A stretch of 62,295 nucleotides of DNA, taken from the NCBI GenBank assembly GCA_965602195.1, contig CBFCYF010000002.1, forward strand, positions 1 through 62,295. Reading direction: 5' to 3'. How positions within the stretch are numbered: position 1 is the stretch's first letter; each line of letters begins with the position of its first letter. Origin of the DNA: an uncultured archaeon. Its GTDB lineage: Archaea > Altiarchaeota > Altiarchaeia > IMC4 > QMZM01. The notes beneath the pieces are model-generated. The model ran no database searches and was not told the origin of the DNA. It saw only the letters and a list, made by a program, of their open reading frames with translations. The position numbers were made by a program, and so were the translations under genes. Of the stretch, positions 318-58,394 are shown piece by piece.

Positions 318-1493
318 TTGATGGCGTTAATTCCGCTTGATGGAAAGGAGACTCCGGAAGAAGCCGGGGGGGAGGTAATTACAAAGAAGAAAGAGCTGGG
401 ATTTGACTTGAATACAGTAGCCATTATCCTAGTCTCCATGATCCTCTTGTTTTCATTACTGTTTTTCCCCCAAACCGTTGAGGGTTATAAGACGCCCATC
501 AACCAGTGGATGTTGATTTTATTATGCATACTTGCTTTAATTGCCTTGATGGTACCGAGAGTTATCGTAAAGTTTCTGGAGTATGAAAGGGGGGTGGTAT
601 TTAGGATAGGCAAGTTCGATAGGATCGCAGGTCCCGGGTGGGCTATAATATTCCCTTTCATGGAGACGTATGCGAGAGTTGATTTAAGGCTGCATGTGTA
701 CACCATAGACCCCCAGGAGGTGGTGACCAAGGATAAGGTGAGATTCCTGATTTCCCCTGAGGTATTTATGTACATATCAAATCCCACAGATGCTGTATTG
801 AATGTTGAGAACGCTAAGGCTGCGACCTTAGGATATATCACTTCTTCTCTGAGACATGTTGGCGGCAACTCAACATCAGACTATATCATATCTCACATGG
901 ATGAGGTATCTCATATGCTTGAGGAGTCAATCCATCACATATCCACTCATCCAGGAAGGGGGTGGGGGGTAAGCGTGCCCCGAGTCAAGCTGACCTTGGT
1001 GAGGTTCCCAGATAGGGTGCAGGATGCTATGCATGAGAAGGTAGCCTCTGAACAGCTAAAGCTTGCTGCTCACGAAAAGGCGGCTGCAACCAAAATAGAG
1101 ATCGATGCCATAAGAGAAGCGGGCGGCAAACTCACTGATCCTGCAATAACCTATATGTATCTGGAGGCCTTGGATAAGATAGCAAGAGGCAGAGCAACCA
1201 AGATTATACTTCCCCTTGAGGTATCTAAGCTTGCAGAAACCATAACAAAAAGAACAGGACAGACCACAGCCCCCCCTGGTTTGCCTCTGGAAACGATAAA
1301 CGAGTATAAGGGCATCATAGACAGCTATGAGAAAAGGCTGAGCAGTATAGAGCATGGGCTGGTCAGGGAAGGAAAAACAGAAGAAAAAAGAGAAAGTGAG
1401 GAACAGAAAGACGTGGGCGCTGAAGAAGAGCGGGATGAGGAATACGATAGAAAGATAAGGCGCATCAAAAAAAGACTTGGGATGGACAGCTGA
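318..1493 (+). CDS. SPFH/band-7 (stomatin/prohibitin-like) membrane protein
   Basis: N-terminal TM helix followed by YERGVVFRIGKF...GPG...IDLR, typical of stomatin/HflK/C; charged coiled-coil C-terminus. Confidence 0.8.
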   Translation: MMALIPLDGKETPEEAGGEVITKKKELGFDLNTVAIILVSMILLFSLLFFPQTVEGYKTPINQWMLILLCILALIALMVPRVIVKFLEYERGVVFRIGKFDRIAGPGWAIIFPFMETYARVDLRLHVYTIDPQEVVTKDKVRFLISPEVFMYISNPTDAVLNVENAKAATLGYITSSLRHVGGNSTSDYIISHMDEVSHMLEESIHHISTHPGRGWGVSVPRVKLTLVRFPDRVQDAMHEKVASEQLKLAAHEKAAATKIEIDAIREAGGKLTDPAITYMYLEALDKIARGRATKIILPLEVSKLAETITKRTGQTTAPPGLPLETINEYKGIIDSYEKRLSSIEHGLVREGKTEEKRESEEQKDVGAEEERDEEYDRKIRRIKKRLGMDS

Positions 1494-1513: not shown

Positions 1514-2155
1514 CTAGCAGGAACCTATGCTAACCCCACAGCTTCCACTTGCGGCGGGGGGGCAAGCTGCACATTCCACACAATAATCCCAGAAATTCTG
1601 GTCGCATTCTAGACTTACATCGAACTTGTTTCCGTCTGCGCAAAAGTTATCGTGGCTGTATACCTCACTTCCTGCGGCAATTATATCTGGGAGAGGTTTT
1701 GAGTCAGATAAGTCATCCTCAAGACATAAGCTGTAGTTGAGGGTAAATACCTTTACCTTGATGTTGCTTAACGTATAATTCAGGGAGTTATCTACTGTAA
1801 GCTCCAGACTCATCTGGTCATCTGGAAGTATACTCTGCCAGTTACGGGCTGTTATGGTTGGGTGAGGCTGAGCTGCAGGTAGCTTATATATCATCGTAAC
1901 TATGGTGCCTGCTATAATTATTATCAACAGCGCTAGTATAACCATTATAATGCCTTTCTTTGCCTCCTCTCTTGCGGCAGGGTTGGTTGCGGTTTTCCAT
2001 TTTACCCCATGCACCACTATCAGGAGCACAGCAAATCCTGCTGCAATTCCATACAGCAGGGATATCATATCTGCTACTGTTTCGCCCATGACTCCTGCCG
2101 TAACCAGATTCGGGATCAATAATATCACCGAAATTTTTATTAATTCTTTTTTCAT
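1514..2155 (-). CDS. Hairpin-motif membrane protein paralog 1 with a Cys-rich C-terminal ectodomain
   Basis: N-terminal leader/TM followed by LYGIAAGFAVLLIVVHGVKWKTATNPAAREEAKKGIIMVILALLIIIIAG (a two-TM hairpin shared with three other proteins); C-terminal region with 8 Cys. Confidence 0.65.
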   Translation of the reverse strand: MKKELIKISVILLIPNLVTAGVMGETVADMISLLYGIAAGFAVLLIVVHGVKWKTATNPAAREEAKKGIIMVILALLIIIIAGTIVTMIYKLPAAQPHPTITARNWQSILPDDQMSLELTVDNSLNYTLSNIKVKVFTLNYSLCLEDDLSDSKPLPDIIAAGSEVYSHDNFCADGNKFDVSLECDQNFWDYCVECAACPPAASGSCGVSIGSC

Positions 2156-2173
2156 TGTTTTTCTTTCAGGGAA

Positions 2174-2476
2174 TCAGAACATCATAGAAACCAGTGCTGC
2201 TGCTATTATTATTATCGCTAGGCCGATGACGACGTTGATTATGCCTCGTTTTGCGTTTTCCCTTACATCAGGGTTGTCTGTTGTTTTATATTTGATTCCG
2301 TGTATTGCTATCAGGAGGATGGCGATCCCGGCTGCGATTCCATATAATATGTAGTTGATGTCTCCTATAGTCTCACTGAATGTCTGTGAAGTCGCAGTTG
2401 TGCTGCCTGCCACCATCTGGGTTGACACTACCGTTAGTATCCTGGTTGTCTGTAGGGGGTGTCTTTTACTTGCCAT
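2174..2476 (-). CDS. Hairpin-motif membrane protein paralog 2 (minimal form)
   Basis: C-terminal YGIAAGIAILLIAIHGIKYKTTDNPDVRENAKRGIINVVIGLAIIIIAAALV; 100 aa; separated from its neighbours by 18 and 5 nt. Confidence 0.65.
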   Translation of the reverse strand: MASKRHPLQTTRILTVVSTQMVAGSTTATSQTFSETIGDINYILYGIAAGIAILLIAIHGIKYKTTDNPDVRENAKRGIINVVIGLAIIIIAAALVSMMF

Positions 2477-2481
2477 GGGTT

Positions 2482-3003
2482 TTAGCCTAGGATGTATTTC
2501 ACAAATTCTACGGCTGTTATTATGAGGATTAATGCGATTATTATGTAGACTATTGATTTTTTTGCATTATCCCGGACCTCGGGGTCTTGGGATGTTAGTA
2601 TGTATATTCCGTTGACGATGAGCATGAGTATTGCGAGTCCGGCGGCGATCCCGTATACTGCTGTTTCGATGTCTTTCAGGAATTTCTTTAGTTCACAGTC
2701 GCCTTGACACTGCCTGCATAATAGTTTTGTTGCTTTTTCAATATCTGTTGTATCTGTTAGGTTTTCGCATTTCTCGCCTAGGATGTTGCAGGCTTCCGGG
2801 TCTGTGATGTTATATAGAAATCCGATGCTATGGCAGTATTCCTCAACTGACAGTGCGGTGCAGCAGCTGTCGCCCATGCATCTTTGGCCTGTGGGGCAGC
2901 CTTTTATCTTGCAGTCGTCGCATATAGCATCTACTGTTGGGACTCCGGACAGGATTACTACTATGAGTAAGAAAATGATCCTATTTTTCGTTGTCTCTGG
3001 CAT
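2482..3003 (-). CDS. Hairpin-motif membrane protein paralog 3 with a signal peptide and Cys-rich N-terminal ectodomain
   Basis: Signal peptide MPETTKNRIIFLLIVVILSGVPTVDA; CxxC-rich domain; C-terminal VYGIAAGLAILMLIVNGIYILTSQDPEVRDNAKKSIVYIIIALILIITA. Confidence 0.65.
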   Translation of the reverse strand: MPETTKNRIIFLLIVVILSGVPTVDAICDDCKIKGCPTGQRCMGDSCCTALSVEEYCHSIGFLYNITDPEACNILGEKCENLTDTTDIEKATKLLCRQCQGDCELKKFLKDIETAVYGIAAGLAILMLIVNGIYILTSQDPEVRDNAKKSIVYIIIALILIITAVEFVKYILG

Positions 3004-3057
3004 TTTAGAGTGGTGATACCATTTCCTGGGTGTCTATAGCATCCAAGAAGTTCCTCT

Positions 3058-3444
3058 TCAGTAAATAGATATGTGACAACTACTATAAAAGTTTATTGGA
3101 GGTAGTAATCGTATCATGATCATTGTCTTGCAATCATTGCTCTCACTCTGTCGCCGGTGTTTTCGGTATGATCTGCTACCGGGGAGACCATAGATAAGAA
3201 GATTTTTTTTGGCGGACTTGAAGGGGTTTACAATATCCTTGCTTATTGCTTGGGTGACGTGGGTGCCTATGAGAACAGCTCTCACTATGTTCCGGATGGC
3301 GGCAAGAAATACAGTTCCACTAACGGTTATCACACCACTATCCACTGAGGTGCCCATGGAATTTGCAACATCATTTACCCTGATGTTCCACGCCATATAG
3401 AAGCCTACGACCCCTGTGAGTATAATGATAAAGATTAATTCCAT
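3058..3444 (-). pseudogene. Truncated PiT-family inorganic phosphate transporter remnant
   Basis: The first ~75 aa (WNIRVNDVANSMGTSVDSGVITV...IGTHVTQAISKDIV) align to the PiT/PHO-4 N-terminal signature [20 protein letters not shown]...GAKVGETIRKGIIDV, but two signature Gly are replaced by R and D. Homology is then lost, and a full transporter would be 330-400 aa. Confidence 0.6.
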
Positions 3445-3621
3445 TGAATAGTAAGGGGATTAACATACCTTAATTCAGGTGTGCTCCAGTGCTTTGTCTA
3501 CTGCCTCTGGGTTATATCCTTCTTCCTTCAATATCTGCTTCAACACTGTTGGGTCCTCTCCCTCCTTCACTTCTTCTTTCACCCAATCTATCATTTCGTC
3601 TTTTTCTTTCTTCTTATCTGC

Positions 3622-4269
3622 TTATTTCTTTCCTTCCAGTCTTTTATAAACCAGAAACAGGATGATGCAGAGGGCTATGATAAATAGAACCACGTATAGG
3701 GTGTAGTCGGTATTCTGGGGGGTGTATGTTCTTCCGCAATCTGTGTCTTCCTCAACCGCACAGTCGGGGTCGCATCTGCCGTCTTCTATTCCATCGCAGT
3801 AGTTGTCCTGCCCTCCAGAGGGACAGTCTAGGGGGCAGTTAATGTAGTTTTCCTTTCTATCTGACTCACATATGGTGTTGTTGTTACAAACCAGAATCGT
3901 TGTCGTATTAGTAGTCGGCCTCACACTAGTCGTACTCGTTGATATGGTTGTTGTGGGTGGACTTTTGACTTTAACGGAGACGCAGTCGGATTTTCCTCCT
4001 TCATCGCATAACACTTTCAGGTAGTATGTTCCTTCTTTTGGGGGTGACCATTTTACTTCGCTACTGGAGATGGTAAATCCGTAGAGGGGTGAGCCCTCAC
4101 ATCGTGTTTCGAATACATCCAGTGATCCGGCTCCGTGTGGGCAATCTGAGGTACACCTGCAGTTGCCTACGTAGCATTCGGGACATGATATTGTGATCCC
4201 GTGTGCTGTTCCCATCAACATCAGTAGTATTATCCCTCCTGTTATCTTGTTCATGGTTTCACCGGGCAT
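3622..4269 (-). CDS. Membrane-anchored Cys-rich surface protein
   Basis: Signal peptide; two Cys-rich modules separated by a Thr-rich linker (SPPTTTISTSTTSVRPTTNTTT); C-terminal TM plus KRLEGKK anchor. Confidence 0.6.
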   Translation of the reverse strand: MPGETMNKITGGIILLMLMGTAHGITISCPECYVGNCRCTSDCPHGAGSLDVFETRCEGSPLYGFTISSSEVKWSPPKEGTYYLKVLCDEGGKSDCVSVKVKSPPTTTISTSTTSVRPTTNTTTILVCNNNTICESDRKENYINCPLDCPSGGQDNYCDGIEDGRCDPDCAVEEDTDCGRTYTPQNTDYTLYVVLFIIALCIILFLVYKRLEGKK

Positions 4270-7200
4270 GTTATGTCTATTACTTCGGTTGATTTAGACC
4301 ACGCGATTGGGTCTTCTAGTTTCGGGTCGGATTCCAGATATGCTCTCCATGATACTTCATAGTCGCCGGGTTCTACGGTAGAACAATAAATGATTCCTGA
4401 GGCGGTCCCTGTTCCTTCTGGGGCTACTGATGTCGAGACGGTTACAATTTTCCCTGTTTTAGTGTTCTTGAACAGGAATAATATGATAATGTCTTCTCCG
4501 GCACTGTTTTCATAATCTAGGTTGCATCTATATCCGCCTTCTATTGGACTACTGACGAAACTGTTGAATGAGTATTTGCCTGGAGTAATTGTGGTTGTTG
4601 TTGTGTCGGAGATGGTTGTTGTGGTGGTATCTGGTGGTGTGGTTGTTGTTGTGTCTGAGGTGGTGGTTGTGGTGTCGGAGATGGTTGTTGTGGTGGTTGT
4701 GGGGCATTCTGGGCATGGGTCAAGTTCTTCCATCAGGTATCTTATGACGTGTCCGCAGTCTGCTCCGTATAGGGTTGTGAATATATGGGCTTCGTAGCAG
4801 GATCCTGTGTTGGGTGTGTTTGGGGTCATTTCCAGGTCTATCCATATCCAGAATTGTTCTCCGCAGTGGGGGCCTTCCCTGATTTCTATCAGGGCCTCCT
4901 GTGATTCTCCGCCGCCTTCTGCACAACCTGTTTGCGTGCATCCTAAGTCTATGATCTTTATGTTATATTTGCTGTCCGTCACCCATGTGGGGTTGCTGTG
5001 GCTGTGGCAATCTGCTGGGATGGTGGTTGTTGTTGTGGTGTCTGATGTGGTTGTTGTTGTGGTGTCGGAGATGGTTGTTGTGGTGTCGGAGATGGTTGTT
5101 GTGGTGGTTGTTGGCGGCGTTCCCGGACAATCCACTGGATCTGTTATGCATGAGCCAAGGGCACAATTTGTAATGGTGCTACACCCCCCATCCATACAAT
5201 AACTCTCAAGAACATCAAGAGGCCAGGGGAGTTCTCGGTCACACCATTCGCAGCTGTTATCCAGGCATTCGTGGCAGTTGTCAAGATCTCCGCATTCTGT
5301 AGGTATCACACAAGCTCCGTTTTTGCATCCGTAGCCGGTTGGGCACGTGATGTCGATGGTTTCTATATAGTATGTGTCGACGCAGTAGTGTTCCCTTAGT
5401 TTATCACCTATGCAGGCGTCTTTTCCTCCTGTTCTGATTCGTGCGTCTCTTTCATTGGCGGCGTGTTTTCTGAAACCATATGTGTGTGCTTGTGTATAAT
5501 AGTCTTTTCCATTATCCGGGTCTGAGCATGGTTGTTTGGTGGAGTCAAATACTCTGCAACTGTCGGTTTCTTGATCCCAGTAGCATGTTGTGATGTCAAG
5601 GCAATTATCCATTGTTTTTTTATCTAAGCATTCACTTGTGTTTATCGTTGTAGTGGTGGTTGTATCTCCCGTTGTAGTAGTGGTTGTATCTCCCGTTGTA
5701 GTAGTGGTTGTATCTCCCGTTGTAGTAGTGGTTGTATCTCCGCAGCATATGTCTCCGCAGCAGCCGCTGGTGCAGTCTTTCACGTATACCCAGTGATAAA
5801 TTGCTGTGGTTGTTGTGGTGTCTGATGTGGTTGTTGTTGTGGTGTCTGATATGGTTGTTGTTGTGTCGGAGATGGTTGTTGTTGTGTCTGATGTGGTTGT
5901 TGTTGTGTCTGATGTGGTTGTTGTGGATGAGCTTGTGGATGATGTGGTGGATGAGCTTGTGGATGATGTGGTGGATGAACTTGTGGATGATGTGGTGGAT
6001 GAACTTGTGGATGATGTGGTGGATGAGGTTGTGGTTGTGTCACAGTCTACAACCTTGAAGCTGTTTTCCTCTTCTGCTTCACACCCGTTTATTATTGCCT
6101 CTACGACAAACCTTCTGGTCCCAGGGATACCAAGATCGTCACTCCACTCATAGACGCCAGTAGTGACCCGTTCAAAGCCGTTCGTAACTAAAATACCATC
6201 TGGGTAGGGGTGGTATGGGTTGTAGAGTATTACCCGATACCAGGATGGGTCTGTCAACTTTCCATCATATCTAAATCTTAGGGTTGCAGTGAATGTATCA
6301 CCTTCACAGTATTCATCCTTATCGAATTTAATTTCTACGGAACAGTCTCCGCCACAGTATACAACCTCAACGCTGTTTTCCTCTTCTGCTTCACATCCCT
6401 CTATTGTTGCTTCTGCATCCACCTCCAGGGTTCCTGTTGCCACCATCGTGAATCTCGCTTCCTGTATACCTTCTGACTTTTTTGTAAAACGATCTGAGTA
6501 ATCGCCTCCATCTACCAGCACCCTCCTCCAGGATGGATCCGTCAAGTCTCCATCATGTTTGAATTTTAGAGTTATTACTACTTCGTCTCCCACACAGTAT
6601 TCTGCTTTGTCAAATTCAATGTCTATGGAACAGTCTGGGGGTGTGCCACACTCACCAATCCAAAAACTTGTGGATGCAGGACTTGTATACGCCATTTGGT
6701 CTGCACTATCATATACCTTCCCAGAGAAGTGGTATGTGCCCTCTGTGGGTGGTACGTACGTCCAAGTATTGGAGCATGTAGTACTAGTCCCAGTGCACTG
6801 ATGGCTGTGCCACAAACCCCCATATTCGGCCTCGAGTTTAGCCATATCTATGTCGTCATACCCATTTATAGTGATATACATTGGCTGCCCGACACAAGGT
6901 GTAGCTGGGGTGTAGCTGAGGGTGCCAGACGGAGGATTATCCTGTGATGCTACGCATACTCCGTCCTCGCATGTTTTTCCTGCGTTACAGTCAGAGTCAA
7001 TGCGGCATTCTACTACATTAACATATACGCATTGTGGGTCTGTCCAACTCTCCTGGGAGCTACTATCAAGTACATAGCCACAGTACTCATATGTGCCTGT
7101 GGTCGACTCTGAGAAATCCCAAAATTTTATGCATTCAGTCTGAGTTCCAGAGCAAGATTGATGGTGCCAGGTGTTACCATACCATGCACTGACTTTAGCT

Positions 7201-7775
7201 ACATCTATATCATCCCTCCCATTTACAGTGATTTCTATCTGCTCCCCAATAAGGGCGGGACCGCCAGATGGCCAGACAGCCAGGAAACCCCAGGGAGGAT
7301 TATCCTGTGATGCTACGCATACTCCGTTTTCGCATGTTTTTCCTGCGTTACAGTCAGAGTCAATGCGGCATTCTACTACATTAACATATACGCATTGTGG
7401 GTCTGTCCAACTCTCCTGGGAGCTACTATCAAGTACATAGCCACAGTACTCATATGTGCCTGTGGTCGACTCTGAGAAATCCCAAAATTTTATGCATTCA
7501 GTCTGAGTTCCAGAGCAAGATTGATGGTGCCAGGTGTTACCATACCATGCACTGACTTTAGCTACATCTATATCATCCCTCCCATTTACAGTGATTTCTA
7601 TCTGCTCCCCAATAAGGGCGGGACCGCCAGATGGCCAGACAGCCAGGAAACCCCAGGGAGGATTATCTCCTGCAACAGAGCCTGCCAGAATAACCGTAAT
7701 CAAAACCAAACATAGGAGTAAACTCTTCCATCTCATTTTACTTCCCTTCCCGTGGCTGATACTATATGACCTCAT
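4251..7775 (-). CDS. Giant secreted adhesin-like surface protein (1174 aa) with a tandemly duplicated domain and Thr/Ser-rich linkers
   Basis: N-terminal signal peptide (a more likely start is M14 at 7736). It carries two identical 121-aa domains (DNPPWGF...CVASQ) plus a divergent third copy, multiple Cys-rich modules, and DTTTTT(S/I), GDTTTTTT and STSSSTTSS linkers. Confidence 0.75.
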   Translation of the reverse strand: MRSYSISHGKGSKMRWKSLLLCLVLITVILAGSVAGDNPPWGFLAVWPSGGPALIGEQIEITVNGRDDIDVAKVSAWYGNTWHHQSCSGTQTECIKFWDFSESTTGTYEYCGYVLDSSSQESWTDPQCVYVNVVECRIDSDCNAGKTCENGVCVASQDNPPWGFLAVWPSGGPALIGEQIEITVNGRDDIDVAKVSAWYGNTWHHQSCSGTQTECIKFWDFSESTTGTYEYCGYVLDSSSQESWTDPQCVYVNVVECRIDSDCNAGKTCEDGVCVASQDNPPSGTLSYTPATPCVGQPMYITINGYDDIDMAKLEAEYGGLWHSHQCTGTSTTCSNTWTYVPPTEGTYHFSGKVYDSADQMAYTSPASTSFWIGECGTPPDCSIDIEFDKAEYCVGDEVVITLKFKHDGDLTDPSWRRVLVDGGDYSDRFTKKSEGIQEARFTMVATGTLEVDAEATIEGCEAEEENSVEVVYCGGDCSVEIKFDKDEYCEGDTFTATLRFRYDGKLTDPSWYRVILYNPYHPYPDGILVTNGFERVTTGVYEWSDDLGIPGTRRFVVEAIINGCEAEEENSFKVVDCDTTTTSSTTSSTSSSTTSSTSSSTTSSTSSSTTSSTSSSTTTTSDTTTTTSDTTTTISDTTTTISDTTTTTTSDTTTTTAIYHWVYVKDCTSGCCGDICCGDTTTTTTGDTTTTTTGDTTTTTTGDTTTTTTINTSECLDKKTMDNCLDITTCYWDQETDSCRVFDSTKQPCSDPDNGKDYYTQAHTYGFRKHAANERDARIRTGGKDACIGDKLREHYCVDTYYIETIDITCPTGYGCKNGACVIPTECGDLDNCHECLDNSCEWCDRELPWPLDVLESYCMDGGCSTITNCALGSCITDPVDCPGTPPTTTTTTISDTTTTISDTTTTTTSDTTTTTTIPADCHSHSNPTWVTDSKYNIKIIDLGCTQTGCAEGGGESQEALIEIREGPHCGEQFWIWIDLEMTPNTPNTGSCYEAHIFTTLYGADCGHVIRYLMEELDPCPECPTTTTTTISDTTTTTSDTTTTTPPDTTTTTISDTTTTTITPGKYSFNSFVSSPIEGGYRCNLDYENSAGEDIIILFLFKNTKTGKIVTVSTSVAPEGTGTASGIIYCSTVEPGDYEVSWRAYLESDPKLEDPIAWSKSTEVIDITCPVKP
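5647..5741. repeat. 24-bp coding tandem repeat x4 (GDTTTTTT)
   Basis: gttgtagtagtggttgtatctccc is repeated four times. Confidence 0.85.
5921..6030. repeat. 27-bp coding tandem repeat x4 (STSSSTTSS)
   Basis: The unit gatgatgtggtggatga(g/a)cttgtg is repeated; similar imperfect ggttgttgttgtggtgtcggagatg repeats occur at about 4596-4720, 5021-5115 and 5806-5900. Confidence 0.8.
6931..7656. repeat. Perfect 2 x 363-bp tandem duplication inside the giant gene
   Basis: Sequence 6931-7293 is repeated at 7294-7656 with no visible mismatches; it encodes the duplicated 121-aa domain. Confidence 0.9.
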
Positions 7776-7777
7776 TT

Positions 7778-8596
7778 TTATTCACACCTATATAACTTAG
7801 AATCGGCACAGCATGTGGCGCCGAAGGTCGGGCACTCACCTCCCTCAACGCATTGTGTTATCGTCGTAGTGGTTGCTGGAGTAGTTGAGGTAGTGGTTGT
7901 ATCCGTCGTCGTAGTGGTTGATGGAGTAGTTGAGGTAGTGGTTGTATCCGTCGTCGTAGTGGTTGCTGGAGCAGTTGTTGTCGTGACTACAGCTTCACAG
8001 TCCAGCAGGCATAACTCATAATAAACCTCGGCGGCCTCATAACATGCCTCTTTAAGTCCACTGCATACGCTGCTGGGATACCCTGCCCTAGTGCAGAGCT
8101 CGTATCTCCCATCACATGTTTCATGACGGTACTCTTTTGTGAGATCACATATCTCCGTGCATGAGGATGTCGCTTGGAGGATATTCACAATCGGCTCCCC
8201 GGAGTAGACTCCGGCATAAGAGCAGTCGGCTTCACCCATATCCTTATGTCCAAGATAGAATATAATGATGTCACTCACCTGCTCCCTGCTGAACCTGCTG
8301 GTGCCCACCGGTTTAGTAGTGTAGTCTCCCACCACCTCATGCACCATAGACCTGAAATCAGCATCTGAGGGGCAGGGAAACGGTTGGTCAGGAGGGCATA
8401 ACCCGACAAGCTCCTCGATTTCGCCGTCACTGAGGGAGGTGTATGTCTTCAGGTAATCCCTCATCTTGTCCTCCACCTCCCTATCAAAGCTCTGGTCAAA
8501 ATCAAAAGCCAAGGAGTTTGAGATCAGGAGCAATAGAGACAACAATATAGACATCAAAATAATTTTATTTCCTATGTTCTTCGTTATATTTAACAT
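7778..8596 (-). CDS. Secreted protein with a Thr-rich C-terminal linker and terminal Cys knot
   Basis: Signal peptide MLNITKNIGNKIILMSILLSLLLLISNSLA; a C-terminal 15-aa repeat TTTTTDTTTTSTTPS; it sits 2 nt upstream of the giant gene. Confidence 0.6.
   Translation of the reverse strand: MLNITKNIGNKIILMSILLSLLLLISNSLAFDFDQSFDREVEDKMRDYLKTYTSLSDGEIEELVGLCPPDQPFPCPSDADFRSMVHEVVGDYTTKPVGTSRFSREQVSDIIIFYLGHKDMGEADCSYAGVYSGEPIVNILQATSSCTEICDLTKEYRHETCDGRYELCTRAGYPSSVCSGLKEACYEAAEVYYELCLLDCEAVVTTTTAPATTTTTDTTTTSTTPSTTTTTDTTTTSTTPATTTTITQCVEGGECPTFGATCCADSKLYRCE
7861..7980. repeat. 45-bp coding tandem repeat of about 2.7 copies
   Basis: tcgtcgtagtggttg(c/a)tggagtagttgaggtagtggttgtatccg is repeated. 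Confidence 0.8.
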
Positions 8597-8663
8597 TTTT
8601 TTTCAGGTTAATGGGATGAGTAATCCTTTTAGGTGGTTAAGCTGCCTCCTCTGGTTCCATGAT

Positions 8664-8978
8664 CTAGCTTACAGTGAGACAGCATTTCTTCAGGTGTTTG
8701 CAGCACTCTTGTGGCGTCACCATGTTGAGTTCCCGGAGTTTTGTGTAGCATGTTCCGGCTTCGTCTGCGGCATTACATGCATCCACCTGGATGTCTGAGA
8801 GGGCTTCGGCTGGTGTCCCAGCTGGTAGCGTTGTTGTTTCCGCTGGCGGTTGCTCCGATGTCTCAGACGAGATAAGAACATATGCAAGTATACAGAGAAC
8901 TGCTATTCCGGTCACAGTAAATATCGTTTTACTCTCCATTCCACTACCTACTGTATTCTTTATTAATATATTATGCAC
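8664..8978 (-). CDS. Small secreted Cys-containing protein
   Basis: TM/signal segment IFTVTGIAVLCILAYVLISS followed by a Thr/Pro linker and 6 Cys; the start is probably the internal MESK. Confidence 0.45.
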   Translation of the reverse strand: MHNILIKNTVGSGMESKTIFTVTGIAVLCILAYVLISSETSEQPPAETTTLPAGTPAEALSDIQVDACNAADEAGTCYTKLRELNMVTPQECCKHLKKCCLTVS

Positions 8979-9017
8979 TAGACTACTATAAAAACATTTC
9001 GTTTGTTTAAGTTACAT

Positions 9018-9587
9018 CTAGATGGTAGTTGTGATGCAACAGTCACCGTAGGTTATGCAGCAGCATTCTACATAATCTACTCCGCAGAAATTATCCAGGC
9101 CGGCGGGAAAGCCGGCAAAGCATGTCCCCCAACCATCATGATCTTTGCATTTAGTTTCTGAATCTGGGCATGATGCCGCAAATACTGCCTCACAGTATTG
9201 GAGTGGCGGCACCCATCCCCCCTCATCACATCCAAAGGGAAGTATGTCTGTATTATCAATTAAATAATTAATCACTGGCAGCGCAACCAAAACTATGATC
9301 ACCCCTATGAAGATATGTGAAATCCTGCCCCGTATATCATTCCTCTGCTCTATATCTTCAGTCGTCATATACTCTATGCCGTACACGATCAAAGCCAGGG
9401 TGGCTAAAAGGCCTATGATCAACCAGATAGTGTCCAGGAGAAAGCAGACTATGTCATTAATTCGGCGTATAATCATATCCACATCAGAGAGTGTTGTGGT
9501 TGGCGTCTGTGCCCAGACTGGGGAAATCAAGGCTGACACCATCAATAATATGAGTACACTCTTCCATAATCTAATCTGTAATCCCAT
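9018..9587 (-). CDS. Hairpin-motif membrane protein paralog 4 with a Cys-rich C-terminal ectodomain
   Basis: Signal peptide; hairpin LIVYGIEYMTTEDIEQRNDIRGRISHIFIGVIIVLVAL aligns with the hairpins of 1514-3003; C-terminus CCCITYGDCCITTTI. Confidence 0.6.
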   Translation of the reverse strand: MGLQIRLWKSVLILLMVSALISPVWAQTPTTTLSDVDMIIRRINDIVCFLLDTIWLIIGLLATLALIVYGIEYMTTEDIEQRNDIRGRISHIFIGVIIVLVALPVINYLIDNTDILPFGCDEGGWVPPLQYCEAVFAASCPDSETKCKDHDGWGTCFAGFPAGLDNFCGVDYVECCCITYGDCCITTTI

Positions 9588-13107: not shown

Positions 13108-13283
13108 GGGCCCGTGGCTCAGCATGGTTAGAGCGCTCGACTGATAATCCCGATGCAGTCATAAGACACCCTAAGGAACCCTCCTTTTTGTCTGTGAACT
13201 GTCCACAGGGAATACCTAGTGTTCCTTGTACCCTCCAGGGATTAGTAATCGAGAAGTCCGGAGTTCAAATCTCCGCGGGCCCA
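13108..13283 (+). tRNA. tRNA-Ile(GAT) with a ~101-nt intron at the canonical 37/38 position
   Basis: Exon 1 GGGCCCGTGGCTCAGCATGGTTAGAGCGCTCGACTGATA; exon 2 ATCGAGAAGTCCGGAGTTCAAATCTCCGCGGGCCCA. The 7-bp acceptor, D, anticodon (CTCGA/TCGAG, loop CTGATAA) and T arms all pair. The intron is about 13147-13247. Confidence 0.8.
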
Positions 13284-14147: not shown

Positions 14148-14900
14148 TTATTCATCGTTATCGCAGATGTTGTTAACATTTTTATCCAAGCAGCAGCCTC
14201 TGCCGTGGCGGATGTAAGGTGGATTGCAGACGACTTTCTTCGCTTCCGGTTCCTCTCTGCTAAACCCAATGAGACGCTTCATCTCCCCCACCACCGACTT
14301 GACGATGTTGACAACCTCGCCGACGGCCTCCTTCACAAACCCAGTTGCTCTCTCAATGATTCCCCGCTCTTTTTCCGGCGACTCACCGGCTCCCGCCAAC
14401 AACCCCTCCACCTGCACAAACTCTCCCTCCAGCTTCATAGACTCCAAGACTGGCTGAGCCTCCCAAGCATATCCGATGAGGTCCTCCTCCTGAGCGGAGA
14501 CAGTCGCCAGATACAACCGACCCCCAGCTGTGAAGACGTCATTGATGACGTAGACGTCAGGGTCGTTGGGGAGGTTAGACATGAAACGCATTGTTTTCTG
14601 GCCCGCAACATCCCCTGAGGGCATGTCCCTCAACAGGGCTCCAAACGTCTCAAGTTGCTTGCGGTACAAACGAATGGCGTCGCTGCCGCTTCCATTAAGA
14701 GGCACCCACGTCGCTGACAAGAGGACATCTCCAGGTTTTTCTGTGTGGGTGAGGGAGAGCATGTTATCTGTTTTGCCGCTGATACGCCAGCGGTTGCTGT
14801 ACTCCAAGGTGATGCCGTTGGTTTCGGCGGTGTGGGTTGCGGCACCTGATGTGAACAACAACACAAACACCACCCCCAAAATCATCTTCTTTAAGTTCAT
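14148..14900 (-). CDS. Secreted hypothetical protein in the GC-rich island
   Basis: Signal peptide MNLKKMILGVVFVLLFTSGAATHTA; C-terminal Cys cluster; a 4-nt ATGA overlap with the upstream gene. Confidence 0.6.
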   Translation of the reverse strand: MNLKKMILGVVFVLLFTSGAATHTAETNGITLEYSNRWRISGKTDNMLSLTHTEKPGDVLLSATWVPLNGSGSDAIRLYRKQLETFGALLRDMPSGDVAGQKTMRFMSNLPNDPDVYVINDVFTAGGRLYLATVSAQEEDLIGYAWEAQPVLESMKLEGEFVQVEGLLAGAGESPEKERGIIERATGFVKEAVGEVVNIVKSVVGEMKRLIGFSREEPEAKKVVCNPPYIRHGRGCCLDKNVNNICDNDE

Positions 14901-17647
14901 TTTGATGTTGGAATAAATGTTTGAATAACACTATTTGCGACATTGTGAACATCACGGCTTCCCTCACGAGTCTTGACGTCGCCGGGTCTCCCGTTCAAGT
15001 ATCCCACCCATGTGTTGACGACTGCCGTATCCCCCCCGGGTGATGTGCGCAACATGCCGATGTGCTGAAGCTTGTCGTTGTAGTCTGCGATGTGGCGAAG
15101 CATGTGGCCCTGGGACTGGGCGAGCGTTTGCTGGCTCTGAAGCATCTGGTTGAAGGCCCTACGTGCGCCGGCATCGTCGCCGTCCCTAATGGCTTGGGCT
15201 GCCTGTTGCTCGTATCTTAGTGTCTGGTCGGCTTGGGACAGCACATTACGCCTGCGGGGGACGTTCTCCTGGCTGAAGGCGCCGACTCGGCTCCTGCTGC
15301 TCTGGACTTCACTCACATAGTTGGTGTTGCCCTTTACGTTCCCCTTAAAGTCGTTGAAGTTGCGGGTTGTGCTGGAGGCGCGGGCTACGCCGACGTTGTT
15401 GGCTACGTTGTTGTCGCGGTTTTTCTGCCCCCTGATCGTGTTCTCCAGGCGGTCGAGGTTGTCCATGCCGTAGGCGCCGCGCATCAAAGCCTGCTGGTTG
15501 AGGCCGATGAACTTGAAGACGCCGCTCATCGCGTTCATGGTTCCCTCAATAGCGCCGGTTGCCTCGTAGCCGAGGAAGTGGTCGCTTATCTTGATGATTT
15601 CGTTGTACATCTTATTCTTCATGGGGCCTGTCATCTTCTGGGCGATGTATTGTTTGATTGCTGTGGTCCCCGCCACGTAGACTGAGTTCGGGACGTAGTT
15701 TTTGATGGCGTCGGTCACTATCTTCTCATATCCCTGGATTGCGTAGAGGCTGTCGATGACTGCGGCTCCGGAGCGGGTCCGGTAGATGGACTTACCTATC
15801 TTGTCTACTCTAAACGCAGCCGAAAGTCCCCCTTGGAGCGTCGACTGTGAGGTCAAGCCGAGGCGCTGGGCCAAGCCCAGGTTTGCGGCGCGGCCGAGCT
15901 GCGCCGACGGCCCGAACGTGAGAAAGGTGTCCCAAGCGGAAAACTGGCGTGAAACAAAGTCTGCTTCGTTGTACTTAAGAATCTCTGTGTCGAAGTAGTC
16001 GCGTCCGATGTCGATGTTATACTGGGTCTTGTCGCCGTTGCGTATTGCGTTGACGTCTACGTTTCTGAAGGCGTCCCAGATGCGCTGTCTGAGCTTCTGG
16101 GCTTGGTCGTCTGTTAAGTCCTTCCCGTAGTGTTCCTTGATCACCTCCTTCAGTCTGTCCTTGCTGAACTTGTTCATTTCCTCAAAGGTGACCCCCTGGC
16201 GACGCAGGTCTTCTACCAGCTTGATGCCTGCTATCTGGCGGGTGGCCTCGTCCACCTGGAGGTCGGCCATGTCCCCGAGTATGTCGTAGTAGCCAGCTAG
16301 TGCCCCTATACTCTCTCCTACGCCTGTGGTGGCGACGTCGATGAGGATGTTGCCGATGCCCGCCTCGCCGTGGCTGTTGAGTTTGTCGTTGAATAACCTA
16401 GCGGTTTTGCTCATGTCCACTGAGAGGTGGTCACGGATGCGCTGCAGGTATTCGAGTTCGACGTTTTGGATGATGCGATTGGCAAAGAGGTTGTCTGGCT
16501 CTTCCTCAAGGATCTTGCGTGCGCTGTGGAGGGCCATGCGGGTGTCGCCTTCCATCTGCTGGCGGAAGACGTTTAGGGTGAGGGCGTCGACTCGGGCGCG
16601 TGGGTTGGCTGTGAGCTTGGGGAGCATCTCGTCGAACTTGTGGGTGGCTCCGCAGCGGAGCGTTAAACTCAGGTGGGTCATGTCGAGCTCTGTGCGGAGG
16701 AGGTTCAGGTAGTTAGAGTATTCATCACGGTGTTTGTAGTCGAAGAAGCCTCCATCCATGTTGTCGAGGATTTCATAGAGCTTTGAGGCTTGTCGCTCGA
16801 ATTCTTCAAGCAACTTGTCCTGCTCCTCACGGAGACGTTCAAGGTCCTTTTTGGCTTCTTCTTTATCTTCCTCTGATCCGTGCTTGAGCATCCATTCAGC
16901 GTCCCTGATCTGGGAGAGGATGTAGTCTGCTTCAGCGTAGAGGTCTTTAATGTCTTTGAGGAATCGGTTCTTCAAGGCTAGGTAGTCGACGACGTTGCGG
17001 GTGATGGCCCGTACTATCTTCTGTTGCTCGGTTTCCTCGGTCTCGACGCAGACGCATTCGTTGGGTTCGCTGTCTTCCTGCGAGAACTCGGTGCCTGGTT
17101 CCCGCTTGCAGACGTCCTCACATGATTCGCAGCCGTCGGCTGTCATCTGCCAGCCTACTTCGCAGATGCCTGTGCAGTCCCCTGAGTCGTCGATGACGCC
17201 TATCATATGTTCGCCTTTCTTCCGCCAATATTTGTCACATTCATCCTCTTCTTCGCTGTCGTATTCGCGGGCGGTGGATGTGGTCGGCGGCGAGGTCAAG
17301 GTCGTCGTCTCGCCGGGGCAGGGTTCATCGGGGAGGACGCATTTAATGAGGTAGCTGCCTGGACAAAAGTTGCCGCACTTCTTGCGGTCGAAGCTCTCGT
17401 AGTCTACAGGTCTTCTACAAGCTTTTGAGTACTTGTCCTCTTCCGGGTCGTCGATGTTGTCATTGGCAGCGCAGATGCAGGCCCGAGTGTAGCTCCAGTG
17501 GGCGTGGGGGCGGTTGTTGCAGTCCTCCTGTACACATCCCACACCGCTCATACGCTGCCAAGTAAAATCGGGAGGGCATTCGACTGCAGTAACACAGTTG
17601 GCCAACAAAAACAGGGAGAGCACGGTTACATAAAGCCTTTCTGTCAC
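14897..17647 (-). CDS. Large secreted protein (916 aa) with a Cys-rich N-terminal domain and long alpha-helical/coiled-coil region; GC-rich island
   Basis: Signal peptide MTERLYVTVLSLFLLANCVTA; 20+ Cys in the first 200 aa; the rest is helical. Local GC is about 55-58%, against about 40% elsewhere. Confidence 0.65.
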   Translation of the reverse strand: MTERLYVTVLSLFLLANCVTAVECPPDFTWQRMSGVGCVQEDCNNRPHAHWSYTRACICAANDNIDDPEEDKYSKACRRPVDYESFDRKKCGNFCPGSYLIKCVLPDEPCPGETTTLTSPPTTSTAREYDSEEEDECDKYWRKKGEHMIGVIDDSGDCTGICEVGWQMTADGCESCEDVCKREPGTEFSQEDSEPNECVCVETEETEQQKIVRAITRNVVDYLALKNRFLKDIKDLYAEADYILSQIRDAEWMLKHGSEEDKEEAKKDLERLREEQDKLLEEFERQASKLYEILDNMDGGFFDYKHRDEYSNYLNLLRTELDMTHLSLTLRCGATHKFDEMLPKLTANPRARVDALTLNVFRQQMEGDTRMALHSARKILEEEPDNLFANRIIQNVELEYLQRIRDHLSVDMSKTARLFNDKLNSHGEAGIGNILIDVATTGVGESIGALAGYYDILGDMADLQVDEATRQIAGIKLVEDLRRQGVTFEEMNKFSKDRLKEVIKEHYGKDLTDDQAQKLRQRIWDAFRNVDVNAIRNGDKTQYNIDIGRDYFDTEILKYNEADFVSRQFSAWDTFLTFGPSAQLGRAANLGLAQRLGLTSQSTLQGGLSAAFRVDKIGKSIYRTRSGAAVIDSLYAIQGYEKIVTDAIKNYVPNSVYVAGTTAIKQYIAQKMTGPMKNKMYNEIIKISDHFLGYEATGAIEGTMNAMSGVFKFIGLNQQALMRGAYGMDNLDRLENTIRGQKNRDNNVANNVGVARASSTTRNFNDFKGNVKGNTNYVSEVQSSRSRVGAFSQENVPRRRNVLSQADQTLRYEQQAAQAIRDGDDAGARRAFNQMLQSQQTLAQSQGHMLRHIADYNDKLQHIGMLRTSPGGDTAVVNTWVGYLNGRPGDVKTREGSRDVHNVANSVIQTFIPTSK

Positions 17648-18614: not shown

Positions 18615-19556
18615 TGTACTATCCCCCCACATATGTTACACTTTTGATTTTGAGTGTAAATAAGTATGAGGTGGGTTAGTATGAAGCTTTCAGTAAAACA
18701 GAGGTTTTGGATTGTTAAGCGGCGCTTGCAGGGGGTGAGTGTCGTTTTTATCTGCCGGCAGGCAGGGATTAGTAGGCGTACCTTTTATTATTACTGGCTT
18801 AGGTTCCAGCGTGAGGGGTGGAAGGGTCTTGGAATAAAGTCCCGCAGGCCTCATACGATCCATCGGACACCCCAGGAGACGGTTGATTTAGTAATTGAGT
18901 TGCGTGAAACCAAGGGGTGGGGCCCTTCAAGGATTGAAGGATACTTACATCAGAACAAACCGGAAGGGGTTAAGTTGGTTGGCCACAACACGATATATAG
19001 AATCATCAAGCAGGCAGGTCTTAACAACCCACTTGATAAGCCCCGGAAGACTTGGGGTAAAAAACGTTTCCAGAGAAGCAAACCAAACGAGATGTGGCAG
19101 GCAGACTGGAAGCTTACAAGAGAAGATGAATGGATGATTACCTATCTAGATGACTATAGTCGGTTCATACCCTCAAGCCAGGTGTTTGAAAATGCAAACA
19201 CAGAGAATGCACTAGCTGTGCTGGAGGAAGCAATGGATGAACACGGCACACCCAAGCAGATACTAACCGATCAGGGAGCTCAGTTCTACACCTGGCAGGA
19301 AGATGGAAAAACCAAATTCACAAAATACCTGGAACGCAAGGATATACAGCACATAGTAGCAAGCAAGAGAAGACCAACAACGATAGGTAAAGTGGAGCGC
19401 TTCCACAGATCTTATGAAGAAGAAGCTTGGCGATACTCTAACCATGGGATGTACATACAACATTACAACTACGAACGTCCACATCAGGCGTTAGATTATT
19501 TAACGCCTGCAGGCGTATATTTTAAAGAAGTGTAACATATCTCAGGGGATAGTACA
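18615..19556 (+). mobile_element. IS481-family insertion sequence (942 bp)
   Basis: 12-bp perfect terminal inverted repeats TGTACTATCCCC (18615-18626 and 19545-19556) starting with TGT; a single HTH+rve transposase ORF; flanked by a 16-bp direct duplication gtatccgctgaatcaa (18599-18614 and 19557-19572). Confidence 0.8.
18666..19535 (+). CDS. IS481-family transposase (HTH plus DDE integrase core)
   Basis: N-terminal HTH (GISRRTFYYYWLRF); DDE residues in WQADW, YLDDYSR and KVERFHRS. Confidence 0.8.
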   Translation: MRWVSMKLSVKQRFWIVKRRLQGVSVVFICRQAGISRRTFYYYWLRFQREGWKGLGIKSRRPHTIHRTPQETVDLVIELRETKGWGPSRIEGYLHQNKPEGVKLVGHNTIYRIIKQAGLNNPLDKPRKTWGKKRFQRSKPNEMWQADWKLTREDEWMITYLDDYSRFIPSSQVFENANTENALAVLEEAMDEHGTPKQILTDQGAQFYTWQEDGKTKFTKYLERKDIQHIVASKRRPTTIGKVERFHRSYEEEAWRYSNHGMYIQHYNYERPHQALDYLTPAGVYFKEV

Positions 19557-50959: not shown

Positions 50960-51523
50960 TTATTCGTTCTGATAGCCTTCTTCTTTTTCCCTCATCTTGA
51001 CTATTAAACCTACTTTCCAGTATGTTTGGATATCCACAATCTTAAAGTATTTACTTAGAGTATTAATCCATTCATCCTGTCTCAGGTTTGTTTCATGTGT
51101 TTCTTTCCACATCCCCCCTACTGTTCTCTCCCAGAAAAACCATATTATTCTCCAAAGTAAACTATTGTCCGGTGTTGATATGATGAAGATGCCCTCATCC
51201 CTCAGTACCCTGTGAATATCCCTCAATGCCAGATCTAAATCAGTGATATGCTCAAGAACCTCCATTGCAACAATGATGTCAAAGCTTTTTTCCGCAAAAG
51301 GTATGCTATATATGTCTCCCTGTTTAAAATCAAATCCAGGTGCGCATTCTTTTATGTCCATCCCGGTTCCGTAACCCAAGTATTTTATGAAGGAACCGTC
51401 CTCCATTGAATCACAGGGCTTTCCGCAGCCAATATCCAGGAGATCCCCCCTCGTGTCTCCAATTAATTCCTTCACTCTTCCGTATCTGCCATAATGGTAT
51501 CTCTCCCTTAACCTATCAAGCAT
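50960..51523 (-). CDS. Class I SAM-dependent methyltransferase
   Basis: LDIGCGKPCDS motif I; DIIVAMEVLEH. Confidence 0.7.
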   Translation of the reverse strand: MLDRLRERYHYGRYGRVKELIGDTRGDLLDIGCGKPCDSMEDGSFIKYLGYGTGMDIKECAPGFDFKQGDIYSIPFAEKSFDIIVAMEVLEHITDLDLALRDIHRVLRDEGIFIISTPDNSLLWRIIWFFWERTVGGMWKETHETNLRQDEWINTLSKYFKIVDIQTYWKVGLIVKMREKEEGYQNE

Positions 51524-51537
51524 TTAAAAAAACCTCC

Positions 51538-58389: not shown

Positions 58390-58394
58390 AAAAA

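Follow-up and report, generated by a model that had tools for sequence, protein, structure and literature searches.

Four VirB2-type pilin paralogues cluster with cysteine-rich surface proteins in an Altiarchaeales archaeon and may form a satellite module of a type IV secretion-derived apparatus

Introduction

What kind of surface structure is encoded where genes for four paralogous membrane hairpin proteins lie on one strand among genes for secreted proteins rich in cysteine and threonine? The question is raised by a nine-gene locus at positions 1514 to 9587 of a 62-kb stretch of archaeal DNA, the whole of which (62,295 nucleotides) is here called the window. By the names given at NCBI, homologues of the hairpin protein of 100 amino acids (aa) belong to Candidatus Altiarchaeales or Altiarchaeota, and all five loci found in a collection of species-representative genomes lie in metagenome-assembled genomes of Altiarchaeales or Altiarchaeota. 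Altiarchaeota are abundant subsurface carbon fixers that have a double membrane, form biofilms through hook-like appendages called hami and are hosts of episymbiotic Huberarchaeota; to our knowledge, their surface machinery beyond the hamus is largely unknown. A preliminary description of this DNA had called the hairpin proteins pilin-like and had held that no characterised system combines such components. Here we compare the locus with protein families, with related loci (denoted by L numbers; individual proteins by P numbers) and with described secretion and adhesion systems.

Results

Profile matches place the four hairpin proteins in the VirB2/TrbC family of pilins

The 213-, 100-, 173- and 189-aa proteins of the locus could be aligned over a common hairpin of about 70 residues with K/R-rich loops, in which the other three are 46, 34 and 23% identical to the 100-aa protein. 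A profile of this hairpin, run against the six-frame translation of the window, matched these four open reading frames (ORFs) with E values of 1e-30 to 1e-35, in agreement with the preliminary description, which had seen a conserved hairpin of two transmembrane (TM) segments in four proteins. The sole further match in the window was marginal (E 0.0077, 12 bits, 32 codons at 57663-57758 on the minus strand), and with four paralogues in 8 kb against one marginal match elsewhere, the clustering is not by chance.

All four proteins scored above the Pfam cutoff of 26.6 bits for PF18895 (T4SS_pilin), with 53.5 bits for the 100-aa, 48.0 for the 173-aa, 37.7 for the 213-aa and 33.6 for the 189-aa protein. 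The 100-aa and 173-aa proteins also passed PF04956 (TrbC/VirB2; cutoff 27.9 bits) with 36.4 and 31.1 bits, the other two remaining below it (23.2 bits for the 189-aa protein). The 100-aa protein, with 40.8 bits against a cutoff of 40, passed the NCBIfam model NF045849 (Mbov_0395 family pilin-like conjugal transfer protein), which the other three window pilins missed. Close homologues of the hairpin proteins are already named "TrbC/VirB2 family protein" or "pilin" by NCBI, as is an 88%-identical relative of the 100-aa protein ("TrbC/VirB2 family protein [Ca. Altiarchaeales]"). On these profile matches the four proteins are members of the VirB2/TrbC family of type IV secretion system (T4SS) pilins, and it is strictly in the sense of this Pfam family that the label pilin-like can be kept. 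Homology to a non-filament family had been named beforehand as a disproof; clear homology was indeed found, but to a filament family. The proteins do not resemble the pilins of type IV pili, which combine a class III signal peptide with one hydrophobic helix at the N-terminus and are assembled by PilB/FlaI and TadC-type proteins, as two TM segments follow the leader and the matches are to T4SS and not to type IV pilus families.

A hydropathy scan called a leader and two TM segments in three of the four hairpin proteins, and in the 100-aa protein the two hairpin helices only, its leader being too weakly hydrophobic for the scan. This protein consists of leader and hairpin with no ectodomain, and its AlphaFold2 (AF2) model, built from a 36-sequence alignment, is a confident two-helix hairpin (helices 28-65 and 69-99) with block means of pLDDT of 89-97 at residues 41-90 and of 69 and 83 at the two ends; this plain pilin is the candidate structural subunit. 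The 213-aa protein has a signal peptide and a hairpin at about 22-90, and its C-terminal part is an ectodomain of about 120 aa that contains 8 Cys; AF2 gave pLDDT means of 87-96 at residues 31-90 and mostly below 50, at most 54, in the C-terminal domain, so that no usable fold model of the ectodomain was obtained. In the 173-aa protein a signal peptide is followed first by a domain of about 75 aa that is rich in Cys (12 residues) and then by the hairpin at 102-172, and in the 189-aa protein the signal peptide and hairpin (about 41-111) precede a C-terminal Cys-rich domain of about 75 aa. In VirB2 pilins the two termini lie outside the cell and the loop is cytoplasmic (PMC9905601), so that the Cys-rich modules, whether N-terminal (173 aa) or C-terminal (213 and 189 aa), would face outward. 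The hairpins probably enter the membrane via the Sec pathway.

The partner proteins are secreted or anchored and rich in cysteine and threonine

The proteins of the locus that are neither hairpin proteins nor a fragment of a PiT phosphate transporter (see below) contain 5.5-7.9% Cys and 11.6-17.3% Thr, against window medians of 1.2% and 5.1%. A hydrophobic segment near the N-terminus is present in all of them, joined in the 215-aa protein by a TM segment at the C-terminus, so that composition and hydrophobic segments bear out their earlier portrayal as secreted or anchored Cys-rich and Thr-rich proteins. The giant of 1174 aa (65 Cys, 17% Thr) comprises an N-terminal domain of about 120 aa present three times, paired beta-type domains, extended Thr/Ser tracts, Cys-rich modules and a conserved C-terminal domain; no Pfam domain was found in it by Pfam scan, and a PDB sequence search gave no relevant match. 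Its gene carries a 363-bp tandem duplication (6931-7667; 2.0 copies, 99% identity) that doubles the N-terminal domain, together with several Thr-coding microsatellite-like arrays. The homologue in L001 is of 669 aa and carries CARDB, and this size gap and the duplication together point to rapid remodelling of the giant. The N-terminal domain shares 42% identity with the ectodomain of a 325-aa pilin fusion of L014, and the C-terminal domain shares 45% with the end of a 762-aa protein of L013; the similarity of the N-terminus to the giant of the L017 T4SS operon is weak (25% over 230 aa, E 2e-7).

The 215-aa protein consists of a signal peptide, a small beta-type domain, a Thr-rich linker, a single copy of a Cys-rich repeat (about 50 aa, 8 Cys) and a C-terminal TM anchor, and gave no match in Pfam, NCBIfam and PDB searches. 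Homologues with one to five copies of the repeat before a C-terminal TM segment occur in L005, L013, L014, L015, L017, L018, L019 and L022, and in five of these (L015, L017, L018, L019 and L022) a protein of this type is encoded between a giant and VirB6-like genes. In the 272-aa protein (16 Cys, 16% Thr) a signal peptide and a Cys-containing domain are followed by a Thr-rich tract and a C-terminus rich in Cys; the Pfam search returned low-complexity mucin-like matches below threshold and nothing else. The 104-aa protein is 48% identical to an 82-aa ORF that adjoins the homologue of the 189-aa pilin gene in L012.

The gene mix recurs in distant Altiarchaeota

In three other assemblies (L001-L003) the giant, the pilin trio and a gene for a Band_7 protein are retained, the trio in the same order and at 86-91% nucleotide identity, with the 213-aa gene beside the 100-aa gene; in L002 Band_7 adjoins the pilins. 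More distant relatives keep the mix of families. On a 382-kb scaffold (L013), four pilin-domain proteins (159, 263, 535 and 623 aa) and four homologues of the 215-aa protein are encoded in mixed order, with a relative of the giant at the flank; in L014 four pilin-domain proteins of 146-759 aa occur with a 215-like protein and a giant relative; and in L012 homologues of the 189-aa and 104-aa proteins are encoded side by side. Homologues of the 189-aa fusion were found in L014 (372 and 325 aa) and L012 (229 aa). The architecture of the 173-aa fusion is kept whole in L013 (159 aa) and L005 (P0032), with 45% identity across about 146 aa, and forms the N-terminal part of larger fusions in L014 (759 aa) and L013 (535 aa). 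Unfused mature pilins of about 70 residues reach up to 56-70% identity to the 100-aa pilin of the window across the group.

Since the same families lie together in distant Altiarchaeota, the arrangement is not fortuitous. The preliminary description had proposed a search of relatives for synteny, and this was found: L012, L013 and L014 repeat the gene mix, and L017/L023, L028, L029 and L039 add VirB4, PrgI and VirB6-like genes.

A solitary plain pilin gene, well conserved, was also seen in a fixed housekeeping context (trp operon, AAA_22, possibly Orc1/Cdc6-like, methyltransferase, pilin, ScpB) at L004/L012:8116-10844, L009:7579-10901 and L010:1543-5273, which recalls the origin-proximal T4SS genes of the candidate phyla radiation (CPR).

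Related loci encode VirB4, PrgI and VirB6-like proteins

In L017/L023 a VirB6-like operon lies 3.5 kb from a second operon that consists of genes for a PMT-type glycosyltransferase (PMT_2), a pilin (49 bits), a PrgI-like protein (33.1 bits; cutoff 27), VirB4 (P-loop_TraG 89, AAA_10 59, DUF87 52 bits) and Band_7. A metagenome scan with this VirB4 recovered 33 loci at 56-100% identity, and VirB4 is present in L017/L023, L024, L027-L029, L033-L036 and L039-L043. The usual gene order is VirB6-like, PrgI, VirB4 and then one to five pilin genes: pilin genes follow VirB4 in about a dozen of the longer loci (three to five of them in six loci), and they are immediate neighbours of PrgI and VirB4 in about 18 of the 33, which is most of those long enough for neighbours to be visible. 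The pilins of the VirB4 loci include hairpin proteins of 750-900 aa, with the hairpin C-terminal in both that were checked. PMT_2 is often found upstream of these loci, and Band_7 lies nearby in L039. Several of their flanks hold genes 53-77% identical to genes of the window, which indicates that the contigs come from related organisms. The Band_7 protein of the window shares 68% identity with the product of the Band_7 gene that directly follows VirB4 in L017/L023, and 60% with that of the gene close to VirB4 in L039. A VirB4 gene just beyond the left end of the window, as in L017, was considered and rejected, since positions 1-317 are the start of a minus-strand gene that runs off the end and L002 has an aminotransferase there.

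Candidate VirB6-like proteins were recognised in L005, in which five paralogous polytopic proteins, of 7-10 TM segments each, are encoded behind a pilin gene (Table 1). The N-terminal part of several of these gave sub-threshold matches to pilin models, and one paralogue resembles the protein upstream of PrgI-VirB4 in L006, a locus of CPR type. A pilin-like hairpin near the N-terminus is also a feature of CedA and VirB6 (PMC9905601). From the TM count, the sub-threshold N-terminal hairpin and the similarity to L006, these paralogues appear VirB6-like; a precomputed weak TrbL_3 match of one of them was not reproduced by our own Pfam scan (E <= 0.01). A search with these paralogues returned 17 proteins, and all seven that bear an organism name are from Altiarchaeota or Altiarchaeales. 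It brought out a conserved operon, with a giant (1800-2100 aa) that contains VWA, a Cys-rich-repeat anchored protein and five or six VirB6-like genes (about 300-790 aa). No relaxase, coupling protein (VirD4/TraG) or integrase was found in the window or among the annotated genes of L017, L028, L029, L033, L035 and L043, the annotation of related loci covering flanks of up to 10 kb.

Beside VirB4 and Band_7, a fusion of an Mrr-type restriction endonuclease and a PAP2 membrane phosphatase (about 590 aa) recurs (Table 1), and homologues of the GT2 and PMT_2 genes of the window flank VirB4 loci in L029, L030 and L039.

The locus as a proposed satellite module of a T4SS-derived apparatus

Taking together the pilin family membership, the recurring gene neighbours and the link to VirB4, PrgI and VirB6-like genes in related contigs, we consider it reasonably likely that the locus is a satellite pilin/adhesin module, and that the surface apparatus which it serves in this Altiarchaeales archaeon is chromosomal, derived from a T4SS and devoid of a relaxase. 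A machine of the VirB4/VirB6 type, with its genes at another place in the genome, would extract the 100-aa pilin from the membrane, and the extracted pilin would polymerise into a short pilus of conjugative type or a stalk. The fused paralogues would be minor, tip or base subunits that show disulfide-bonded modules, and the giant and the 272-, 215- and 104-aa proteins, probably O-glycosylated on their Thr tracts, would make an adhesive coat or contact surface. The likely output of such an apparatus would be contact between cells or with surfaces, possibly with DNA uptake of the Ced/Ted kind or protein transfer, and not plasmid conjugation.

Several observations weigh against this reading. Pfam scans of the larger ORFs and six-frame tblastn found no VirB4, PrgI/VirB3 or VirB6-like gene in the window, and in L015 and L018-L022 the operon of giant and VirB6-like genes was seen with no VirB4 within the flanks, which extend up to 10 kb on either side. 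When structures were searched with the hairpin model, generic helical hairpins alone were returned, and in hairpin-profile searches of PDB sequences (E up to 10) none of the matches listed was named as a pilin; with a fold so simple, fold and sequence searches against solved structures cannot discriminate. The nearest members of the family, moreover, are mostly large fusions or multi-hairpin proteins that are hard to pack into a helical filament of the VirB2 type, and the many large fusions fit use as a membrane anchor equally well as use in a filament.

Large fusions and the use of the hairpin as a membrane anchor

These fusions suggest another possibility, which we hold to be clearly less probable than the satellite module, namely that the VirB2-type hairpin has been co-opted in Altiarchaeota as a two-helix membrane anchor, with both termini outside, that displays ectodomains and forms no pilus. 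A 623-aa protein of L013 (4094-5965) joins a VirB2-type hairpin (PF18895, 27.8 bits) to PKD/Ig-like domains and a papain-family Peptidase_C1 domain (E 8e-31), a fusion of hairpin, PKD and papain-type protease also occurs at the start of L017 (592 aa), and at L015:2371-3039 the hairpin is fused to PKD alone; these genes adjoin the operon of giant and VirB6-like genes. Pilin fusions reach 759-898 aa, with the hairpin in N-terminal, middle or C-terminal position. A hairpin-profile search of 1.84 billion representatives returned 5624 relatives, of which the best 23 are all of 430-1775 aa with 4-17 tandem hairpins per chain (P0054-P0076, for example P0054 with 1775 aa and P0067 with 563 aa) joined by short Cys-containing linkers; one cluster of such proteins holds P0198 (MCK4491598.1), which is named as Ca. 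Altiarchaeales and apparently stems from the same submission as the closest relative of the window. Both the free placement of the hairpin and the tandem chains speak for an anchor, and the chains are hard to fit to a classical VirB2 filament; the lack of an assembly ATPase in the window and the solitary pilin genes amid housekeeping genes in L004, L009 and L010 point the same way. Two features speak for a filament instead: the short unfused pilins are highly conserved, as expected of a polymerising subunit, and pilin genes stand so often beside PrgI and VirB4 in the related loci. The anchor and filament readings are compatible, and both may be true for different paralogues.

A bolder proposal, which we put forward as speculative and rather improbable, is that the hairpin is a general building block, such that plain, ectodomain-bearing and poly-hairpin chains co-assemble through a machine of VirB4, PrgI and multiple VirB6-like proteins into a decorated, lipid-containing filament or stalk. 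If this were so, the stalk could possibly bridge both membranes and show enzymes and adhesins to neighbours, surfaces or episymbionts, and it would be a T4SS pilus with functionalised subunits, of a kind so far without description.

Layout and genomic setting of the locus

The ORF listing of the window confirmed nine genes, all on the minus strand (Table 1). Their spacings, from 1514 to 9587, are 18, 5, 54, 177, -19 (an overlap), 2, 67 and 39 nt; the locus is therefore compact, as had been stated, but the limit of 46 nt given for its gaps beyond the PiT fragment and its 177-nt spacer does not hold, the gaps beside PiT (54 nt) and between the 272-aa and 104-aa genes (67 nt) being larger.

Table 1. 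Coordinates of the genes of the locus, of the adjoining Band_7 gene and of gene arrays and fusions in related loci
Feature	Position	Strand	Basis or content
213-aa pilin fusion	1514..2155	-	PF18895 hairpin + C-terminal ectodomain
100-aa plain VirB2/TrbC-type pilin	2174..2476	-	PF18895, PF04956, NF045849
173-aa pilin fusion	2482..3003	-	N-terminal Cys-rich domain + PF18895/PF04956 hairpin
128-aa PiT/PHO4 phosphate transporter N-terminal fragment	3058..3444	-	PF01384, partial
215-aa anchored surface protein	3622..4269	-	Cys-rich repeat + C-terminal TM
1174-aa giant secreted protein	4251..7775	-	composition, repeats, shared domains
272-aa secreted protein	7778..8596	-	signal peptide, Cys/Thr content
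104-aa small protein, N-terminal anchor, Cys-rich C-terminus	8664..8978	-	homologue pair in L012
189-aa pilin fusion	9018..9587	-	PF18895 hairpin + C-terminal Cys-rich domain
Band_7/SPFH (stomatin-like) membrane protein	318..1493	+	PF01145 90.7 bits; convergent with pilin trio
VirB6-like paralogue array	L005:505-6443		
VirB6-like paralogue array	L015:10001-15739		
VirB6-like paralogue array	L017:7081-13124		
VirB6-like paralogue array	L021:7157-13584		
Mrr-PAP2 fusion	L017:13121-14884		
Mrr-PAP2 fusion	L024:4674-6170		
Mrr-PAP2 fusion	L026:3467-5281		
Mrr-PAP2 fusion	L039:12929-14692		

The 128-aa ORF, which divides the locus into two parts, covers positions 3-62 of the 350 of the PF01384 (PHO4/PiT) profile and, with only the first 60 or so PiT positions, is a remnant and likely a pseudogene. 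A segment of about 1 kb (3148-4160, most of the 215-aa gene and the PiT fragment) is absent from the close relatives L001 and L003. An IS481-family transposase (rve and HTH domains; 18666-19535, plus strand) lies about 9 kb from the locus and two tRNA genes lie 3.5-4.3 kb from it. The truncated PiT gene, this indel, the transposase and tRNA genes and the want of an ATPase in the window might suggest that an integrated conjugative element or plasmid left the locus behind or brought it in as cargo, in which case the pilin genes would be the decaying residue of a mobile T4SS and the surface genes unrelated neighbours. We regard this as very improbable, since the GC content of the locus (0.44-0.47) is like that of most of the surrounding window, all eight non-PiT ORFs are intact, neither integrase, relaxase nor coupling protein was found in the window or in annotated related loci, the same families occur in housekeeping contexts of distant Altiarchaeota, and the pilin trio is preserved in order and sequence in three assemblies. 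That genes for unrelated membrane and secreted proteins, which share no function, lie together here by chance, as the division of the locus by the pseudogene fragment and 177-nt spacer and the variable accessory content (a giant of 669 aa in L001, of 1174 aa here) might suggest, is scarcely credible and largely refuted by conserved co-occurrence, the same families being together in L012, L013, L014 and L017, the giant and the pilin fusions having domains in common and the four paralogues being confined to 8 kb of the window.

The rest of the window is ordinary chromosome, with genes for a topoisomerase, cysteine desulfurase, DNA ligase, CDP-archaeol synthase, deoxyhypusine synthase, HMG-CoA reductase and a tyrosyl/tryptophanyl-type (class Ib) tRNA synthetase. 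A tRNA gene interrupted by an intron of roughly 100 nt (13108-13283, plus strand), matched by Rfam and missed by ARAGORN, fits an archaeal host, in which a scan for sigma-70 promoters and intrinsic terminators has no meaning and was set aside. A T2SSE ATPase and two T2SSF genes (55926-59555, plus strand) form an assembly set of type IV pilus or archaellum type, which, at 46 kb from the pilin locus, is a separate surface system; beside it, at 50960-55823 (minus strand), lie a glycosylation cluster (PMT_2 and two GT2), a methyltransferase and a CARDB surface protein. A 1763-aa protein of alpha-2-macroglobulin type with MG2, MG3, A2M bait region, TED and receptor-binding domains is encoded at 37311-42602 (minus strand).

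Discussion

The core of the locus is a known pilin family that is present in Pfam and NCBIfam and already annotated by NCBI, and parallels to it have been described in Patescibacteria, in the Ced/Ted systems and in SPEARE-type proteins, so that the earlier statement that no characterised system is comparable cannot be upheld. What is unusual is the use of the hairpin in ectodomain fusions and in up to 17 repeats. In the searchable literature, which is incomplete, no paper was found that joins Altiarchaeota or Altiarchaeum with VirB2, VirB4, TrbC, pilin or type IV secretion; nor did we find there a description of the expansion of the family in Altiarchaeota, of the ectodomain and protease fusions, of the tandem poly-hairpins or of the operon of multiple VirB6-like genes and a Cys-rich anchor. 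If the satellite-module reading is right, Altiarchaeota own a chromosomal, relaxase-less, T4SS-derived apparatus whose pilins have diversified by ectodomain fusion, which is unreported for VirB2. It would extend the picture drawn from Ced/Ted, CPR and nanohaloarchaea, in which conjugation machinery has repeatedly been domesticated for cell-cell interaction, and would put to the T4SS field the structural question of whether VirB2-type filaments can be built with large appended domains or from tandem-subunit chains. Concrete targets for cryo-ET, proteomics and metatranscriptomics are at hand in the mature pilin with its 70 conserved residues, in the anchor with the Cys-rich repeat and in the operon of VirB4.

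Comparison with known systems

The hamus of Ca. Altiarchaeum hamiconexum, an appendage of the same lineage that likewise serves cell-cell attachment at the surface, is built from a 97-kDa beta-rich subunit with an S_layer_N signature (PMC4460559). No pilin-like membrane hairpin is described for this subunit, and no S_layer_N signature was found in the nine proteins of the locus or in a nearby 916-aa protein; the pilin locus is not the hamus locus. The 916-aa protein (14897-17647), which has a Cys-rich N-terminus and a long helical-looking remainder, is one of two secreted proteins (250 and 916 aa) without a Pfam family at 14148-17647 (minus strand), a stretch in which the GC content rises to 0.51-0.54 from the roughly 0.41-0.49 of the other parts of the window. 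It adjoins an acylphosphatase gene and was considered as a hamus subunit because the SM1 hamus contig also has an acylphosphatase; it was rejected as it lacks S_layer_N and looks helical.

Nanohaloarchaea have giant SPEARE-type adhesin-like proteins tied to VirB4/TraG ATPases (PMC10266531), and the likeness lies in the combination of giant membrane-anchored extracellular proteins and T4SS ATPases in an archaeon with intimate cell-cell interactions. In nanohaloarchaea, however, the ATPase domain is fused to the giant, and the text of PMC10266531 contains neither "VirB2" nor "pilin"; no homology to the giant of the window, itself without Pfam domains, was found. A second parallel is the module of the Mycoplasma integrative conjugative element (ICE), with its pilin-like Mbov_0395 (NF045849) and TM protein Mbov_0396 (NF045889). 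Besides passing NF045849 as given above, the 100-aa protein is a weak match to the model of the partner TM protein, and these matches fit a T4SS type of single-membrane organisms; the mycoplasma element is mobile, with a relaxase-like function and an integrase, neither of which was seen here.

The Ced and Ted systems of Crenarchaeota are chromosomal DNA-import systems derived from T4SSs, with the components CedA1/TedC, CedA/TedA and CedB/TedB, and have no recognisable sequence similarity even between the two (PMC9905601). Like the Altiarchaeal system they are archaeal and chromosomal, combine a VirB2-like pilin, a VirB6-like channel with a pilin-like N-terminus and a VirB4-like ATPase with no relaxase, and sometimes have their components at distant loci; the likeness is one of architecture alone. 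The Altiarchaeota differ in having a PrgI-like protein and many pilin paralogues and fusions, and no HerA, Rad50 or ParA genes were seen nearby in their loci.

The T4SSs of Patescibacteria have arrays of divergent VirB2-like pilins (PMC12102498). PF18895 and PF04956 define the pilins in both groups, and the arrays hold 2-11 pilin paralogues of about 25% mean identity, the window pilins having 23-46%. The minimal set is VirB4, PrgI/VirB3 and VirB6, as in the loci of the relatives of the window, with relaxase usually absent, and both systems are chromosomal and thought to serve cell-cell contact; a distant homologue of the window pilins, P0036 (L006/L007), itself lies in a Patescibacteria-like T4SS locus. 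In contrast to Patescibacteria, the host here belongs to Altiarchaeales, pilins bear ectodomains of Cys-rich, PKD or protease type or are joined into multi-hairpin proteins, VirB6-like paralogues number five or six and occur in operons that include Cys-rich-repeat anchored proteins and giants, and the pilin genes of the window are not near VirB4. The closest described systems are thus the VirB2-array T4SS of Patescibacteria and Ced/Ted, with the Mycoplasma ICE and SPEARE/VirB4 as more distant parallels.

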